From the NCBI GenBank assembly GCA_002310235.1, contig DBYO01000035.1, forward strand, positions 418-64,417: a stretch of DNA of 64,000 nucleotides. Reading direction: 5' to 3'. The translations under genes were made by a program, and so were the position numbers. The notes under the pieces were generated by a model. That model saw only the letters and a program-made list of their open reading frames with translations, ran no database searches and was not told the DNA's origin. Of the stretch, positions 57,279 to 64,000 are shown one piece after another (position 1 is the stretch's first letter; the number at the start of each line of letters is the position of its first letter). Source of the stretch: Bacteroidales bacterium UBA1184 (GTDB lineage: Bacteria; Bacteroidota; Bacteroidia; Bacteroidales; ML635J-15).

Positions 57279-57308
57279 AAAAAAAGGTCTCCATTCGAGA
57301 CCTTTTTT
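57279..57308. terminator. Bidirectional rho-independent terminator between tig and hsdM
   Basis: The sequence is aaaaaaaggtctc-cattc-gagacctttttt. Confidence 0.85.
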
Positions 57309-57330: not shown

Positions 57331-58842
57331 TTATTTGCCCAAATCCTCAATTATATTCTTAAAGCATTTCAAACTGCTTTCGATATTTTCAACAATGTCG
57401 GCGGCAATTTCCTCAGGCTCGGGAAGATTGTCGAGATCGGTAAGGCTCTTGTCCTTTATCCAGAATATGTCGAGGTTGGTTTTGTCGCGGGCAACAATCT
57501 CATCGTAAGTGAACTTGCGCCAACGTCCTTCGGGATTTTCCTCGCTCCAAGTTTCGGTACGCAGATTGCGATTTTCGGGATTATAGCACTTGATAAAATC
57601 GGACAAATCCTCGAATGTGAGCGGTGACTTCTTGAGCGTGTGGTGAATGTTGGTGCGGTAGTCGTAAATCCAAATGTTCCTGGTCTGCACTTCCTTGCTT
57701 GCAGGACGATTGTCGAAGAAAAGCACATTTGCCTTTACTCCGTTTGCATAGAAAATACCGGTAGGCAGACGAAGAATAGTGTGCAGTTCGGTGGTTTTCA
57801 TCAGTTGCTTGCGAATCTCCTCGCCTGCTCCTCCTTCGAAAAGTACATTGTCGGGCAACACGACAGCCGCCTGACCGTTGATTTTCAACAAAGTTTTGAT
57901 ATGCTGAAGGAAATTCAACTGCTTGTTGGAAGTGGTTTCCCAGAAATCCTGACGGTTGTAACTCAAATCCTCCTTCTCCACTTCGCCGTCCTCGTTGGTA
58001 ATGGTAATGCTGCTCTTTTTTCCGAAAGGCGGATTTGTGAGCACATAGTCGTAGCGGTTGCCTGTGTCGGACACAAGTGCATCGTTGGGCGAAATGAAAT
58101 CCTCGCTGTCGAGTTCGCCAATGTTGTGCAGATAAAGATTCATCAGGCACAGACGGCGCGTGTTGGCCACAATCTCGTTGCCGAAGAAGGTCTTTTTCTT
58201 CAGAAACAGTTTCTGGTCTTTGTTGAGCGGCTGACCTGCAATATAATCGTAGGCGGCAAGGAAGAAACCACCCGTTCCGCAGGCTGGGTCAATTATGGTC
58301 TTTTCTGGTTTCGGACGCACGCACTCCACCATTGCACGAATCAACGCACGGGGCGTAAAATACTGACCAGCACCGCTTTTGGTGTCTTCGGCATTCTTTT
58401 CGAGCAAGCCCTCGTATATCTTGCCTTTCACGTCAGAACCCATCAGCGACCAGTTTTCTCGGTTAATCATCTCGATTACGCGAAGCAGTTTGGCAGGATC
58501 CTGAATCTTGTTCTGGCTCTTAGTGTAGATTTGCCCCAACATTCCTTTCTCCGTGCCAAGGCTGCGAAGCATCTGCACATAGTAGGCCTCCAATTCGGCA
58601 CCGCGCTTGCTTGTGAGAGTTTCCCAGTCGCACATTTCACCGCCGGGGATTTCCTTTCCTTCGGCATCCTTTAGGCGCGGAAACTTCAACCCCTTGTTGT
58701 AAGGCGGTTTGTTCATCTCGTCGGCCATCTTCAAAAAGAGCAGATAGGTAATTTGCTCCAAATAGTCGCCGTAACTTACGCCATCGTCGCGAAGGACATT
58801 GGCCATATTCCAGATTTTCGATATTATTGTTGATTCGGTCAT
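57331..58842 (-). CDS. hsdM: Type I restriction-modification system, DNA methyltransferase subunit HsdM
   Basis: It has the HsdM N-domain (LRDDGVSYGDYLEQITYLLFLKMADE), the SAM motif IIDPACGTGGF and the catalytic motif NPPFG. I prefer the ATG at 58842 (MTESTII...) over the track's TTG at 58863. Confidence 0.93.
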   Translation of the reverse strand: MTESTIISKIWNMANVLRDDGVSYGDYLEQITYLLFLKMADEMNKPPYNKGLKFPRLKDAEGKEIPGGEMCDWETLTSKRGAELEAYYVQMLRSLGTEKGMLGQIYTKSQNKIQDPAKLLRVIEMINRENWSLMGSDVKGKIYEGLLEKNAEDTKSGAGQYFTPRALIRAMVECVRPKPEKTIIDPACGTGGFFLAAYDYIAGQPLNKDQKLFLKKKTFFGNEIVANTRRLCLMNLYLHNIGELDSEDFISPNDALVSDTGNRYDYVLTNPPFGKKSSITITNEDGEVEKEDLSYNRQDFWETTSNKQLNFLQHIKTLLKINGQAAVVLPDNVLFEGGAGEEIRKQLMKTTELHTILRLPTGIFYANGVKANVLFFDNRPASKEVQTRNIWIYDYRTNIHHTLKKSPLTFEDLSDFIKCYNPENRNLRTETWSEENPEGRWRKFTYDEIVARDKTNLDIFWIKDKSLTDLDNLPEPEEIAADIVENIESSLKCFKNIIEDLGK

Positions 58843-58863: not shown

Positions 58864-59568
58864 CTATAATCCATAATAGTATTTTATGGCGATACCTATG
58901 AATATCGCTATGGAAAAACTTAGTAATGTACCTATCAATACATATTCTGACTTGGCTTTATCGCCTTCGGCAAAACGCAAAATTGATTTCGCAGCTATGA
59001 TAAATCCAACAGCTTCATATTGTCCTAATAATATAAATGTAAACGCGAGTAACCTCTCTACTATTCCTATCAATTTTCCTGCATTAGGCAAATCATCCCC
59101 ACATTCTTCTTCCGTCCCTTTTGACACCTTTATATTTACCGCCTTAAAAATCTCCTTAATTATTATGTTAGACGGCTTTATGCAAACAAGGACACCCAAC
59201 AGTAATGCCAAATGCATTTCCTCCACACAACACAACCAATTAGGCAAATTACAATTCCACAGATAACAAACTGCCACAATGACCATCAAATGTATCAACT
59301 GGTCAATAAAGAAAATGCCCTTACACTTGGACGCATAACATTTCATTGCATCGACAAGCAAATGAGAAACCGCTATGATTAATGCAACCCACCAAAAACC
59401 GAATGAAAATGAGAACAGCCAAGCGCACAAAAAGGTTATAAGAACATGTATATAAAGTTTCGGCGACCTAAAACCTCTTTTTCCTTTGTCTGCGCACGAT
59501 TTATCTGTCTGTAAATAGAAATCACTAATTGTGTGGGCAATTATTTGTAATAATAAAAACCGTATCAT
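58864..59568 (-). CDS. DUF3307-like polytopic membrane protein
   Basis: The 234-aa ORF has at least 5 hydrophobic segments and polar motifs AHTISDFYLQ, VSHLLVDAMK and FIDQLIHL. It starts 2 nt after the SatD-like stop and ends 21 nt before the hsdM ATG. The family name is from memory. Confidence 0.6.
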   Translation of the reverse strand: MIRFLLLQIIAHTISDFYLQTDKSCADKGKRGFRSPKLYIHVLITFLCAWLFSFSFGFWWVALIIAVSHLLVDAMKCYASKCKGIFFIDQLIHLMVIVAVCYLWNCNLPNWLCCVEEMHLALLLGVLVCIKPSNIIIKEIFKAVNIKVSKGTEEECGDDLPNAGKLIGIVERLLAFTFILLGQYEAVGFIIAAKSILRFAEGDKAKSEYVLIGTLLSFSIAIFIGIAIKYYYGL

Positions 59569-59570
59569 AA

Positions 59571-60263
59571 CTAAAAGTTTATTTGTTCGTAATACTTCAG
59601 CAACTGCTCAACAGCATTCCAACCAAACAATGTCGAATGCTGATTTACAGCAGATTGATTAATACCCAATTTTTCGGATATTTCGTTCTCGTTTTTTCCT
59701 AACAGACGATAATATATGACTTCACATTGACGCTCCGTTGCTCGCTTAAACAATACATCCAACAAACCCAAATAAGCATTTATCTGTTGTGTCAATTTAC
59801 AATTCGAAGACTCGAAAAACAATGTATTTTTTATCACTACTTTTGATTTGTTCGAAGTTCGCTGGCGTTCTATTGCCCTTCCCGAAGCATATATGGCCTC
59901 GCCATCCAACATATTTGTCTGCTTATCGGCAATACGCATTTCACCAACGGCAATGGCTATTCTAACACCATATGTCTTAAACATATTTAAACGCCTCTTG
60001 TCTACATTTTGATCTGCACATTCTGTGTCAACCTTAAATTTTTTTATCATCGTTTTTAAAAGCAAGGCTATACGCAATGAGTTTTGTGGATTTCCCATAT
60101 AAATTTCCACGCTATCACCTTTGCTTAATCGGCCCCATGTATCTTCGTATTCTTTTTCTATTTGCTCAACAAAGACCCCTATCTCGTTCTGCAATTGACT
60201 TAAAGCACAAGGTGTCAGTTCTGTAGAAGATACTATGTCCGCTGAAATTGTAGCTCTATTCAT
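59571..60263 (-). CDS. SatD-like protein: N-terminal class III nucleotidyl-cyclase-like domain + C-terminal sigma-70 region 4/LuxR-like HTH
   Basis: The 230-aa ORF has the ordered motifs ISADIVSSTEL, GDSVEIYMGNPQNSLRIALLL, VRIAIAVGEM and GEAIYASGRAIE. Its C-terminus reads ERQCEVIYYRLLGKNENEISEKLGINQSAVNQH. The family and fold calls are by eye. Confidence 0.6.
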   Translation of the reverse strand: MNRATISADIVSSTELTPCALSQLQNEIGVFVEQIEKEYEDTWGRLSKGDSVEIYMGNPQNSLRIALLLKTMIKKFKVDTECADQNVDKRRLNMFKTYGVRIAIAVGEMRIADKQTNMLDGEAIYASGRAIERQRTSNKSKVVIKNTLFFESSNCKLTQQINAYLGLLDVLFKRATERQCEVIYYRLLGKNENEISEKLGINQSAVNQHSTLFGWNAVEQLLKYYEQINF

Positions 60264-60279
60264 AAATTTTATTTTTTTG

Positions 60280-60287
60280 CAAAGATA
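60280..60287 (-). promoter_or_regulatory. -7 box (TAtcTTTG) for the satD-like/DUF3307/hsdM operon
   Basis: The reverse complement of caaagata is tatctttg, which ends 16 nt upstream of the ATG at 60263. Confidence 0.5.
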
Positions 60288-60294
60288 CTAAATT

Positions 60295-60374
60295 TTATAA
60301 GCCAAAAAACTTATAAACTGTATTTATAAGCCAAATAACTTATAAACCATATTTATAAGCCAAATAACTTATAA
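60295..60374. promoter_or_regulatory. Three phased palindromes TTATAAG-N8-CTTATAA (29-bp spacing): candidate operator array
   Basis: Left arms are at 60295, 60324 and 60353, and right arms at 60310, 60339 and 60368. The spacer is ccaaaaaa in copy 1 and ccaaataa in copies 2 and 3. The array sits immediately upstream of the -7 box. Confidence 0.7.
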
Positions 60375-60395
60375 ATCGTTTCAAAACAAAACTTA

Positions 60396-60530
60396 TTATT
60401 TTGTTTGTAACAACCAGTCTATCACATTGATTTTCTGTAAACCATCAACTACGCTTCCATCGAAATCCAATGAAAGCAGATACTTTGGATTAGCATCACG
60501 AATACACTTTAATGACGAAATTTCCCATAT
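60396..60530 (-). pseudogene. Start-less 44-codon open frame with protein-like composition (possible gene remnant)
   Basis: The minus frame reads IWEISSLKCIRDANPKYLLSLDFDGSVVDGLQKINVIDWLLQTK*, bounded upstream by TGA, with no ATG or GTG start. Confidence 0.3.
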
Positions 60531-60600
60531 TCATTCGCAGAGCTCCAAATATGTATTTCTTTTTATCATACAATAAAAATTGTGATTGCAAATATACACA

Positions 60601-60642
60601 ATAATGACGAAAACTACAAAATTCAACAAATTTCGTCATTAT
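60601..60642 (-). terminator. 12-bp perfect hairpin downstream of hsdS
   Basis: The arms are ataatgacgaaa and tttcgtcattat with an 18-nt loop. There is no clean U-tract. A third aatgacgaaa copy lies at 60511-60520. Confidence 0.45.
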
Positions 60643-60664
60643 CGTATAGGTGACTTCGATAGAT

Positions 60665-61864
60665 TCAGCCACAATTTGCGGTCGTTGAACCTGTTAAGAC
60701 AACCAATTCCCCGCTAAATGCCTTTTTGAGTATGCTTTGTCTCAGTGCCTCGGTCTTTTGCAACGATTCGGTAATGCGTGCCTCGGCTGCCTCGGCCTGC
60801 GACAGGCGCGATTCTATCTCCTCAACTATGCGCTGCTGCTCGTAAAGAGAAGGAAAAGGTATTTCACAATTTCTTATAATTCCTTGGTTTAAATTACTCA
60901 TAGTTGTTCCATTACTTGAATTCTCAAAATATGAAACAATTTTCTGACTGCTCAATAAATGACACAAATAAGTCGCATTCAGCAATTTACCACCTCTAAT
61001 AAACAAACTACCTGTTCCGCACAGCATTCCATCCTCTTTTCTTGAAACCACTGCACACCTTCCCATCTCTCCTCTCCGACCTAATATAACATCATCTATT
61101 TGTAAATAATAATTAGACAACTCTTTGTATTTTTCCAATGATACAGTAAACGAATTATAAGGAAATATCTTTTTATTATTAATGTGCATCGGATTAATTA
61201 ATGGAATACCACCTTCAATATAGTCGGACTTATGTAATTGCGTACCAAATGGTCCTATTTGAATTTTCTCTGCCACTTCTCCCAACTTCACCGTTTCCCA
61301 TTTCCCATCATCATTGTTCAGCCAATGGTTTAGCACTGCCTGCCTGTATATTTTTAGTTGCTGCTGTGCGGTGCGCAAGTGCTCCACGGCTTTGTCGAGT
61401 TCGGCAAATAGGGATTCTATGCGGGAAACTATGAGACGCTGGGTGGGGGTGTCAACATCGGGAATTTCAAAATTCCACAACAAATTGGGTTCAATATGCG
61501 GTATTCCTACTCCTCTTGGATTGCTATTCAACACTTTGTATTTCGATTGAAGAAAATAAAACAAAAAATCGTTTGTGTATTTTTCACTGCTTATTTTCGC
61601 CAAAGTCGAACCTATTGCACCTTCAACACCTCTACCAACAAAACCACAACGTGCACCGTCCCAAACAATTAAAACATCGTCTGGCGTACAAAATGTGCAA
61701 TTCTCCCCATCGGTATAATTGTCTATAATACCTTTCTCAAAGGCTTTAATATCAACATACGGAATTGCAAAACCATTCGTCTTTTCTTTAGAAACGTTTT
61801 TGGGTTTCTTGCCTTTGATACTGTGGGCAATTTCTATGAGCTTATATTTATTTAACAATCTCAT
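60665..61864 (-). CDS. hsdS: Type I restriction-modification system, specificity subunit HsdS (two target-recognition domains)
   Basis: The 399-aa ORF has two AT-rich variable halves separated and followed by GC-richer conserved helices (QRLIVSRIESLFAELDKAVEHLRTAQQQLKIYRQAVL; EQQRIVEEIESRLSQAEAAE..LRQSILKKAFSGEL). Confidence 0.9.
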   Translation of the reverse strand: MRLLNKYKLIEIAHSIKGKKPKNVSKEKTNGFAIPYVDIKAFEKGIIDNYTDGENCTFCTPDDVLIVWDGARCGFVGRGVEGAIGSTLAKISSEKYTNDFLFYFLQSKYKVLNSNPRGVGIPHIEPNLLWNFEIPDVDTPTQRLIVSRIESLFAELDKAVEHLRTAQQQLKIYRQAVLNHWLNNDDGKWETVKLGEVAEKIQIGPFGTQLHKSDYIEGGIPLINPMHINNKKIFPYNSFTVSLEKYKELSNYYLQIDDVILGRRGEMGRCAVVSRKEDGMLCGTGSLFIRGGKLLNATYLCHLLSSQKIVSYFENSSNGTTMSNLNQGIIRNCEIPFPSLYEQQRIVEEIESRLSQAEAAEARITESLQKTEALRQSILKKAFSGELVVLTGSTTANCG

Positions 61865-61870
61865 TGTATA

Positions 61871-63577
61871 TCAAAATAAAGATGGATATCCAAGTTGTAT
61901 ATCATATTTAACGAGTATTTTTTTTACCTTTTCAAATTCATTATCTTGAAGTAAATGGTATTTTTCATTTAAGTTAATTTTTTTAGCCATAAAATCTATA
62001 TTATAATCTTCCTCTATTCCTAATACCATTTGACTATTCTGAGGTTGCTCTCTCAGTATAAATTCATAAATATTTTTTATATGAGGAATGTCTTGCGCTT
62101 GTTGATTAGGAGAATCAATAATTATTGGGCAAAACATACTTGATGAATTGTTATTAGCTATATGCAGTATAGAAAAATAATATGCCATGATTGCTCTAAG
62201 AGACGAACTTCCTGTATTTTTAGGTTCTAAGTATATGTTTTTTATAGATGAAACATCATATTCTACATCTAGCTGTTGTAAATATATAGACATATATCTT
62301 TTATAGTCTTCTTTTATTTTCTCTCTTTTTTCTCTTTGCAATTTCTTTTCGTCTTTAATCTTTTGCTCCAAATCTGTTATTTCAAAATTTATTGCTTCCA
62401 ACCTTCTTTTTCGCTCACACATATCTTCTTCAAAGAATCGTATCGTCTCTTTAGCCCCTTCATTAACAATTATATCTGAAAGAGTTATATTTTCCTTTTG
62501 CTGATGCATTAACTCACTAATTTTATCATATTTTTCTTTATAAGAATTAATATTTTTCCTTTCTTCTTCAATCTTATCGTTTATTGCTTTTAAATCTTTT
62601 TCTAAATCTTGAAGAATGACAGAACATCGATTTTCTTCTTTAATAAAAGCAAAACGATGGTCCATACTATTAGTATAGTTCATACCACAAGTTGGACAAA
62701 CTAACTTATCTGGTTTTGATAATGAATATTTATAATCATCATTGAGTTCTTTTAATGTATGTTTTGTAATATTTATTTGGGAAAACAAATTATACTTTTG
62801 ATCATAATATTCTATTAATTGCGCCTTACTTTTTTTCTGCTTAGCAATCAAATCACTACATTCTTGTTCTAATCTTTTTATTTCACATTGGAAATCATTT
62901 AAAGTCATTGCAAAATATTTTATACTTGCCGTATCTTTTATTTTATTATCCAGGACTGATATTATATTATATTCTTTTTCCTCATTATCATAATTTATCT
63001 TCTTTGTTTCTCTATCACATTGTAATTCATATAGTTTTCTACTATTATATCCGATATGATATTCTATTGTGTTCTTTTTGTAATCTTTAATCTGTTGCAA
63101 ACCTTTAAATGAATTCCATGCTGTTGTCCAACCTGAATCTTGGTCAATATAATAAGGAATAAAAACAAATGCAGGGGGAGGAACAATAAAGTTACCATTT
63201 TTATCGGGAAGTTTTATTACAAATCCTAATAAGTTCGCAATATACTGACTATATTCTCCAGAAATCTTTGAATATGATTTTAAAAGTTGATCTTTAGAAT
63301 CGTAAATCGATATAGTATTATCAACTTTTCTATAAATAGAATACTCCTCATTATTAATTGAGAATCGCAATAAAACATCAACCCTCGCATCTTTCCATTT
63401 TGGATTAACCTTCAATGAATCAGCACCGAACGCATAATATATACTTTTAATTAAAGAACTTTTCCCAGTATCATTTGTCCCTATTATTATTGTTCTTTGC
63501 TGATCGAACACTACTTCTCTCGCCCTTTTCTCCTTGAAAGAACAGAGCAGTATCTTTATTAATTTGAAGCTTTTCAT
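61871..63577 (-). CDS. ABC/SMC-like ATPase with coiled-coil insertion and CxxC hook (Rad50/LmuB-like; defence-associated candidate)
   Basis: The 568-aa ORF has Walker A GTNDTGKS (aa 33-40), a Q-loop-like YIDQDSGW, a K/E-rich helical region at aa ~185-440 with CPTCG at aa 294-298 (C294/C297; nt 62687-62698), a signature-like TGSSSLR, and Walker B/D-loop-like FCPIIIDSPNQQ (aa ~482-493). Its stop lies 6 nt before the hsdS start. Confidence 0.7.
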   Translation of the reverse strand: MKSFKLIKILLCSFKEKRAREVVFDQQRTIIIGTNDTGKSSLIKSIYYAFGADSLKVNPKWKDARVDVLLRFSINNEEYSIYRKVDNTISIYDSKDQLLKSYSKISGEYSQYIANLLGFVIKLPDKNGNFIVPPPAFVFIPYYIDQDSGWTTAWNSFKGLQQIKDYKKNTIEYHIGYNSRKLYELQCDRETKKINYDNEEKEYNIISVLDNKIKDTASIKYFAMTLNDFQCEIKRLEQECSDLIAKQKKSKAQLIEYYDQKYNLFSQINITKHTLKELNDDYKYSLSKPDKLVCPTCGMNYTNSMDHRFAFIKEENRCSVILQDLEKDLKAINDKIEEERKNINSYKEKYDKISELMHQQKENITLSDIIVNEGAKETIRFFEEDMCERKRRLEAINFEITDLEQKIKDEKKLQREKREKIKEDYKRYMSIYLQQLDVEYDVSSIKNIYLEPKNTGSSSLRAIMAYYFSILHIANNNSSSMFCPIIIDSPNQQAQDIPHIKNIYEFILREQPQNSQMVLGIEEDYNIDFMAKKINLNEKYHLLQDNEFEKVKKILVKYDIQLGYPSLF

Positions 63578-63624
63578 ATTGTTTATTTCTAAGATTTCTT
63601 ATTATCTTTTTGTAATTATCATCT

Positions 63625-64000
63625 TCATTCATAACACTTTATCATTATTATTGCTTTAATATATTGTTCATTATATATATCCTGATTTACAGCATCACTA
63701 GAATATAAATCAAAACACTCTTTAATTATTTGCATAAATGTTTTTCCTTCAGGCTTTATGTTTACCTTTATCATATCAATTTTTTCTTCAATTTTTTTGA
63801 GAATCACATGATTGGGATTCATAGAATCAATCATATAGTTGTCAATCACACGTAAATACAACTTTATATCTCCAAATAGAATATTTTCTTCTCCTAATGT
63901 TCTTTTGATACCATCTTTTATCGAACTCCAATCTTTGGTTGTGCAATATTTCTCCATAAATGTTTTAAACTCAGAACGTTTATATCCTTTTTTTTTCACA
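63625..64000 (-). CDS. Hypothetical protein upstream of the ATPase (at least 124 aa; N-terminus possibly beyond the window)
   Basis: The frame is open to the window edge. The track's 'M' is a GTG at 63997-63999. The sequence is very AT-rich and I did not recognise a family. Confidence 0.5.
   Translation of the reverse strand, partial: VKKKGYKRSEFKTFMEKYCTTKDWSSIKDGIKRTLGEENILFGDIKLYLRVIDNYMIDSMNPNHVILKKIEEKIDMIKVNIKPEGKTFMQIIKECFDLYSSDAVNQDIYNEQYIKAIIMIKCYE

Follow-up and report, generated by a model that had tools for sequence, protein, structure and literature searches.

A palindrome array of 29-bp period as the probable autoregulatory operator of a SatD-like/DUF3307 cassette lodged in a type I restriction-modification operon

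Three perfect copies of the palindrome TTATAAG-N8-CTTATAA, whose successive starts are exactly 29 bp apart, were located by pattern search in front of a gene for a SatD-like regulator of Bacteroidales bacterium UBA1184. We think that this array is a set of private, cooperatively occupied operators of the SatD-like protein, which most likely represses its own promoter through them, and we give this reading a probability of about 0.8. The regulator gene forms a cassette with a gene for a DUF3307 membrane protein, and in this genome the cassette is lodged within a type I restriction-modification (R-M) operon, just before hsdM. To judge from where its homologues are found, the array belongs to the mobile cassette and not to the R-M system. 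Throughout the text, the window is the whole stretch of 64,000 nucleotides that was analysed, and the original prediction is an earlier set of claims made on the array.

The array and the operon in the window

The three palindromes, all of them perfect matches and listed without strand, occupy positions 60295–60316 (P1, the proximal operator), 60324–60345 (P2, 29 bp from P1) and 60353–60374 (P3, the distal one, 29 bp from P2). The whole array (60294–60380, also without strand) is described by TRF and by a repeat finder as three 29-bp tandem units, the TRF output being a 29-nt unit with a copy number of 2.8, 94% matches and a score of 143. The original prediction of three perfect 7-bp inverted repeats with an 8-nt spacer and a 29-bp period is thus confirmed by the pattern search and by TRF. 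The spacers, described there as nearly identical, read CCAAAAAA, CCAAATAA and CCAAATAA in the three palindromes. An alternative parse of the array gives six half-sites of alternating orientation, separated by spacers of 8 and 7 nt. With up to two mismatches allowed, the window contains four palindrome matches against 0.40 expected, a number reached by none of 100 shuffled sequences. The search of the rest of the genome that had been proposed returned only the array, P1–P3 being the sole sites in the 2.8-Mb assembly when one mismatch is tolerated. The palindromes had also been called helically phased, which is misleading, because 29 bp correspond to about 2.76 turns of B-DNA (29/10.5) and the sites are therefore not on one face of the DNA. 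Phasing on the same face was rejected by this arithmetic, successive sites being rotated by about 85–90 degrees.

A Bacteroidota-type −7 promoter box, TAtcTTTG, is present on the minus strand at 60280–60287, between P1 and the ATG and separated from them by 7 and 16 nt, respectively. The gap between the array and the box (60288–60294) had been given as 8 nt and has to be corrected to 7 nt; the distance of 16 nt between the box (60287–60280 as read on the minus strand) and the ATG at 60263 was borne out. The box keeps an identical distance from the ATG in the clade of 81–87% identity. Taken alone, motifs of the TAnnTTTG type occur in the window about as often as expected (61 against 57.8), and a scan with the sigma-70 consensus promoter was of little use, since this consensus is uninformative for Bacteroidota. 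Counted from a transcription start that is predicted from the position of the −7 box, the centres of P1, P2 and P3 would lie at about −32.5, −61.5 and −90.5, respectively, with P1 covering the −33 region.

On the minus strand, the genes follow each other in the order hsdR, LmuA, LmuB, hsdS, a 400-bp gap that ends in the array, the 230-aa regulator, DUF3307 and hsdM. The hsdS gene (60665–61864, minus strand) is the last of the upstream unit hsdR-LmuA-LmuB-hsdS and bounds the 5' side of the cassette slot. The gene of the regulator (59571–60263, minus strand) is abutted by that of the 234-aa DUF3307 membrane protein (58864–59568, minus strand; Pfam PF11750, E 5e-25). The latter is followed by hsdM, encoding the type I methyltransferase (57331–58842, minus strand; Pfam and PADLOC matches), with its ATG at 58842, 21 nt past the DUF3307 stop. 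A bidirectional terminator hairpin at 57280–57308, with no strand assigned, is common to hsdM and the convergent tig gene and is the likely end of the operon; no terminator-like site was found from the array to this hairpin. Minus-strand TAnnTTTG motifs in the stretch are the proximal box, a second box at 60589–60596 and otherwise only one inside the DUF3307 gene. Because of the 21-nt gap after DUF3307 and the lack of a terminator in between, hsdM is probably the third gene of the cassette transcript, driven by the cassette promoter.

The approximately 290 bp between hsdS and the array (60375–60664) contain three copies of ATAATGACGAAA besides the second box, which reads TAtaTTTG, and one pair of the copies forms a 12-bp hairpin directly after the hsdS stop. 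This stretch is near-identical in loci L006 and L013 and is missing in L011 and L018, where the array comes directly after sequence resembling that which follows the hsdS stop in the window. It looks like an insertion.

Recurrence of the array and covariation with the recognition helix

The inspection of homologous loci, which had also been proposed, revealed the same palindrome architecture and the same 29-bp period at about 74 of 81 Bacteroidota loci, a count that overstates the number of independent events, as many of the 81 are close relatives. In this set the protein identity ranges from 39 to 87%, and a scan of species-representative genomes contributed 79 of the loci, at 40–87% identity. 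The figure of 74 refers to arrays of at least two palindromes upstream of the regulator gene, chained leniently, and three sites are the commonest number. The 230 nt upstream of the start codon contain, in nearly all loci, two to seven palindromes of the form (T/A)TAT-NN-G-N8-C-NN-ATA(A/T). When 7-8-7 palindromes were searched for without constraint, 99 of 145 spacings between neighbours were exactly 29 bp. Pairs with this spacing amount to 4.78 per kb in the upstream 260 nt, as opposed to 0.031 per kb over the other 608 kb of these loci; several of the pairs in that remainder extend the array or belong to a second array located at the 3' cassette end. Counting palindromes by spacer length was uninformative, since extended arms match at many spacers. 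In the half-site logo, built from 170 distinct sites, the core T2-A3-T4 is 88–97% conserved and positions 5–7 differ by clade.

The array is also tied to the promoter, since the loci can be sorted into discrete classes by the distance of the proximal site from the −7 box. This offset is +5 to +7 nt in 18 loci, including the window; the right arm of the proximal site overlaps the box in 10 loci, and in another class of 20 the box lies inside the operator. Among 13 close relatives there are 6 in which an extra unit of about 29–30 bp displaces the array to a position upstream of the core promoter, with an offset of +37.

Which protein reads the sites can be addressed by comparing half-sites with protein residues. 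A mutual-information scan of all protein columns against the half-site positions was swamped by phylogenetic noise in the variable columns, and a three-clade discrimination test, which corrects for kinship only partly, was used in its place. The independent clades were one of 81–87% identity, one of 47–53% identity and one of Flavobacteriia at 44–47%. Of the 27 loci with A205, 24 have TTATAAG half-sites, and of the 22 with V205, 20 have half-sites of the TTATNGG type. Position 205 alone among 230 fully separates both half-site types in all three clades, and the direction is the same each time. With 5, 9 and 63 discriminating positions in the three clades, chance alone would yield about 0.05 shared positions, versus the one that was found. 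Moreover, the replacement of Q208 by K or R accompanies the change of half-site G7 to C in two further clades. Both covarying residues, which are A205 and Q208 in the window, are inside helix 203–213 of the pLDDT-90 model. The correspondence between residue and base is not absolute, in that the last site of some V205 arrays is a hybrid, with TTATAAG as one of its arms.

As the half-site bases covary with residues of the recognition helix, we think that the adjacent protein, and not another factor, reads the sites, and that the palindromes are very probably the binding site of the cassette's own HTH protein. The original prediction, which took the array for the operator of the HTH protein encoded by the first gene, is upheld by the recurrence at about 74 of 81 homologues, by the location of the sites at the −7 box and by the covariation with the helix. 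A two-residue specificity rule is predicted, by which residue 205 would read base 6 and residue 208 base 7 of the half-site.

Orphan sites on viral DNA have to be considered at this point. Two perfect copies of TTATAAG-N8-CTTATAA in the 29-bp register are present on 19 viral contigs of IMG/VR (L101–L119), for example at L117:722–772 and L102:3053–3103, and no such pairs at 28 or 30 bp were found on viral contigs. The pairs occur in at least seven distinct sequence contexts. Neither SatD-like nor DUF3307 genes were found in the flanks of the pairs or in 11 whole viral records, most of the records being fragments; many of these contigs are 100–330 kb long with an estimated completeness of 16–33%. 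In the one viral record that is complete (35.5 kb), the pair is flanked by an integrase-like gene and a sigma-70-like gene. One pair of the TTATCGG type was found too, between tRNA-like genes. Viral contigs that carry orphan pairs without a SatD-like gene would suit a different binder of the palindromes, be it a global regulator of the host or a phage protein, with the SatD-like gene being merely adjacent. We consider this very unlikely, however, as several independent clades show the half-site shifting along with residues 205 and 208 of the neighbouring protein, and the host genome has no further sites.

It is still less probable that the repeats work at the RNA level and not as DNA sites, forming hairpins that could, for example, attenuate or terminate read-through from hsdS. 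A stem of 7–8 bp is possible for each unit, and the array might be transcribed from the TAtaTTTG box upstream of it. Nevertheless, arm position 5 is often consistently asymmetric (TTAT[A/T/G]GG versus CCGATAA), which would produce mismatches in the RNA, and the −7 box lies within the site in many lineages. Moreover, the promoter-like insert upstream of the array is missing from most relatives, and RNA structure leaves the covariation with protein residues unexplained.

Arrays of more than one kind are found in part of the relatives. Stacked arrays of two half-site types are present upstream in L012–L014, L030, L036–L038, L041 and L042; in some relatives distal TTATAAG units are followed by proximal TTATNGG units, and the promoter-proximal units of mixed arrays mostly fit residue 205 of the resident protein. 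These stacked arrays with a matching proximal type suggest replacement of the cassette via recombination within the arrays. In addition, eleven loci of the 40–43% identity clade (L051, L054, L062–L065, L070, L076, L079, L081 and L086) carry one or two additional palindromes just past the DUF3307 stop, and in six of them these are pairs 29 bp apart.

The repeats might then be viewed as recombination joints or cassette boundaries that serve cassette exchange and have no regulatory role, in line with the hybrid and stacked arrays, the second arrays at the 3' end in the eleven loci and the sporadic distribution of the cassette, whose regulator gene was detected in 3 of 61 related genomes. We find this hardly credible, since the cassette is not accompanied by any recombinase, the close positional link to the −7 box, together with the covariation with the HTH, points to protein read-out at the promoter, and recombination within repeats can arise as a side effect.

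The cassette, its proteins and the proposed switch

The regulator combines an N-terminal class III cyclase-like domain (approximately residues 1–152) with a C-terminal HTH. The HTH helices in the AF2 model (pLDDT 90.2) span residues 177–187, 192–199, 203–213 and 215–227. The third of them, QSAVNQHSTLF (residues 203–213; codons 59625–59657, minus strand), is the predicted recognition helix according to the translation and the AF2 helix assignment. The N-terminus of the model has the cyclase-homology fold according to Foldseek: all 26 PDB matches with E ≤ 0.001 are adenylyl or guanylyl cyclase domains, including Ma1120, GC-A, bPAC and Rv1264 (E about 1e-4, probability 1.00), and two Pycsar uridylate cyclases (cUMP synthases) rank next with E about 2e-3. 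At the sequence level, no cyclase family was found among the Pfam and NCBIfam matches of the regulator or the Pfam matches of 15 family members, and a PDB sequence search with the family profile gave no match of use. Residues D9, D50 and R129 are invariant across the family, and we take the D9 and D50 motifs to resemble the two metal-binding aspartates of class III cyclases. A conserved Tyr125 stands at the position aligned with the catalytic Asn, a placement made by eye with no residue-level structural alignment behind it, and catalysis by the regulator is uncertain because of this residue. The cyclase-like domain may be an enzyme or a nucleotide sensor only.

For the HTH, the GerE model scores 19.7 bits with the regulator of the window, below its cut-off of 23.5, and matches all 15 of 15 family members at E ≤ 1 (best 3.1e-5); the sigma-70 region 4 model matches weakly. 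The defence-system models of PADLOC 2.0 matched neither the regulator nor DUF3307. A search with the regulator gave no match in a phage collection and only two among plasmids, both distant.

SatD takes its name from the sat locus of Streptococcus mutans. The label 'satD-like' of the original prediction is right in a transitive sense and not in a direct one. The Pfam SatD model (PF16264, gathering score 29 bits) matched neither the window protein nor 15 relatives at E ≤ 1, and a search of the whole genome at E ≤ 10 gave no match either, so that direct SatD membership was rejected. On the other side, DUF3307 is immediately downstream, and the A2 profile matches protein P0269 at E 5.8e-31, which in turn scores 40.8 bits on PF16264 and whose locus consists of SatD followed by DUF3307. 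By this profile homology the regulator is a divergent member of the SatD superfamily. The family is large, as a profile of 79 members matches 1647 representative clusters (50% identity) at E ≤ 1e-3, and the array offers a predicted operator as a testable handle on SatD/DUF3307.

The array recurs at such distant loci. In a Pfam-SatD/DUF3307 locus, a −7 box comes after three palindromes whose period is exactly 29 bp, and another locus from the profile search has five sites at 29 bp. On the Vibrio lentus plasmid p1 (NZ_AP025501.1), three TTAGCC-N6-GGCTAA sites with a 28-bp period (2871–2954 of locus L100) precede a 24%-identical SatD-like gene and then DUF3307. Since arrays recur at Pfam-SatD loci and on this plasmid, the architecture is old and general within the superfamily, and its period of 29 bp (28 bp in Vibrio) persists in proteins that are only 24% identical. 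No clear array was seen at L089, the locus of a remote relative. The V. lentus plasmid is conjugative, and a gene for an Rpn-family nuclease adjoins the cassette there.

DUF3307 accompanies the regulator in 80 of 81 loci, always downstream of it, and the two genes overlap or abut in 77 of 77 loci, with distances of −11 to +7 nt; DUF3307 is probably translationally coupled to the regulator gene. Its AF2 model is all-helical, with 11 helices and conserved His, Asp and Gln residues, and gave no match when compared with PDB folds. The literature searched for SatD contained no data on DNA binding or operators and essentially no functional work on SatD/DUF3307. A transposon meta-analysis lists satD of Streptococcus pyogenes as accessory yet essential (PMC11323703). 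This combination fits a repressor or antidote of a harmful partner, and the operator reading offers an explanation for it.

The relation of the cassette to R-M systems is loose. In about 64 of 81 cases, no type I R-M homologue was detected within about 4 kb of the cassette, by a search that could have overlooked divergent R-M genes. Type I neighbours occur in the window's own clade and, independently, in L051, L054, L079 and L084. In the first three of these four, the cassette sits between hsdR and hsdM of an R-M family 24–31% identical to that of the window, and the second site pair lies between DUF3307 and hsdM, about 60–70 nt before the hsdM ATG, which makes direct control of the hsdM promoter by the regulator conceivable in that lineage. 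Because most cassettes are outside detectable R-M loci, we regard the array as a property of the cassette, and control of hsdM here would be due to where the cassette landed. Two cassettes are lodged in the type I operon of the window, namely the regulator/DUF3307 pair and Lamassu. The arrangement shows how a foreign cassette that has settled in an R-M operon can bring a type I methylase gene under its promoter.

Some further features of this region deserve mention. PADLOC identifies the neighbours as LmuA, LmuB and type I R-M subunits. The two-gene Lamassu, composed of LmuA with a Cap4-type nuclease domain and LmuB, is located between hsdR and hsdS (61871–63999 of the window; L004:43–3946). 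In a locus of the same genus with a 99%-identical hsdM (L092, G010:C99), the slot has no cassette and holds an ORF, read by eye as an IS200/RAYT-like transposase, that ends right at the hsdM start. Five loci (L008, L010, L016, L017 and L018) have only short 5' fragments of hsdM after DUF3307 (residues ~6–73 or fewer), where the cassette seems to have been moved or cut together with the start of hsdM.

We propose the following mechanism for the switch. Each 22-bp palindrome would be bound by a dimer through its C-terminal HTH, dimerisation being a known property of class III cyclase domains. In the recognition helix, residues 205 and 208 would read half-site bases 6 and 7, and invariant residues would read the TAT core. 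Neighbouring dimers would touch each other, as suggested by the exact 29-bp register, and occupancy would be cooperative. Since the −33 region, which immediately precedes the −7 box, is covered by P1, repression is the most likely outcome: full occupancy would turn the promoter off, in a negative autoregulation. The transcript would comprise the regulator, DUF3307 and, in this lineage, hsdM, tying expression of the methylase to the cassette switch. The cyclase-like domain is the presumed input, and a nucleotide that it binds or produces might alter DNA binding.

The same protein could instead act on the array as an activator, by positive autoregulation or, like C proteins, by activating or repressing depending on the site. 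HTH proteins of the LuxR and sigma region-4 types are often activators, and the array of the 6 close relatives with the +37 offset, ending about 37 nt upstream of the −7 box, is clear of the core promoter; this offset class keeps activation among the rivals. We nevertheless think it rather improbable: a proximal site that, in 48 loci, either lies over the −33 region or overlaps or encloses the −7 box is hard to reconcile with activation, and the essential but accessory satD of S. pyogenes suggests a protective repressor.

Going beyond autorepression, the SatD-like/DUF3307 pair might be a sensing module, in which an autorepressed membrane effector is freed when the repressor is drawn off by a nucleotide signal or by invading DNA that carries decoy sites, with hsdM being raised as well. 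The orphan pairs on viral contigs motivate this idea of decoys or titration, which in our opinion is speculative and has a rather small chance of being correct. If it were true, the hsdM dosage of a type I system would be coupled to the state of the cassette in this genome.

Comparison with known systems

The original prediction drew a parallel with the controller proteins of R-M systems. C proteins such as C.AhdI, C.PvuII and C.Esp1396I are small Xre-type proteins (about 80 aa) that serve an R-M system exclusively; they have two operators and usually control the nuclease gene. The likeness consists in a first gene that encodes an HTH protein, in palindromic operators lying side by side at the promoter of this gene (putative ones in the window) and in an R-M gene further downstream. 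The regulator of the window differs in its 230 aa, in belonging to an independent cassette found mostly outside R-M loci, in having three sites at 29 bp and in that it is the methylase that rides along. The parallel is thus unsupported, since the operators travel with the cassette, the protein is not of the C-protein type and the downstream R-M gene encodes a methylase and not a nuclease.

The CI protein of phage lambda is a dimeric HTH autoregulator that binds cooperatively to operator triplets and both activates and represses; its operators are 17 bp long and irregularly spaced. The window shares with it the three adjacent operators at a promoter, and the arrays at both ends of the operon in some relatives recall OL and OR, whereas the strict 29-bp register and the protein family are different. 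As to the sensory half of the regulator, class III cyclases (Ma1120, bPAC, Rv1264 and the Pycsar cUMP synthases) have the same N-terminal fold, although the regulator has no cyclase Pfam match, and the fusion with an HTH in a protein of 230 aa differs from the known layout of Pycsar and CBASS. The pair formed by Pfam SatD (PF16264) and DUF3307 (PF11750) has the same two-gene layout and, at one locus, the same array of three sites at 29 bp.

The general mechanism, i.e. a multi-operator autoregulator, is ordinary, and its closest working analogue is HipB of Escherichia coli, which binds cooperatively to four TATCC-N8-GGATA palindromes over the hipBA promoter (PMC3376134). The O1 and O2 sites of hipBA start 28 bp apart, as counted on the printed O1O2 oligonucleotide (PMC3376134), which is close to the 29 bp of the window. 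Both systems have an HTH autoregulator, several N8 palindromes over its own promoter and a harmful partner gene next to it, the autoregulation and the harmful nature of the partner being presumed in the case of the SatD-like/DUF3307 cassette. They differ in their proteins, HipB being a small Xre-type antitoxin with a kinase as partner, whereas the regulator of the window joins a cyclase-like domain to a LuxR/sigma-r4-like HTH and has the DUF3307 membrane protein as its partner.
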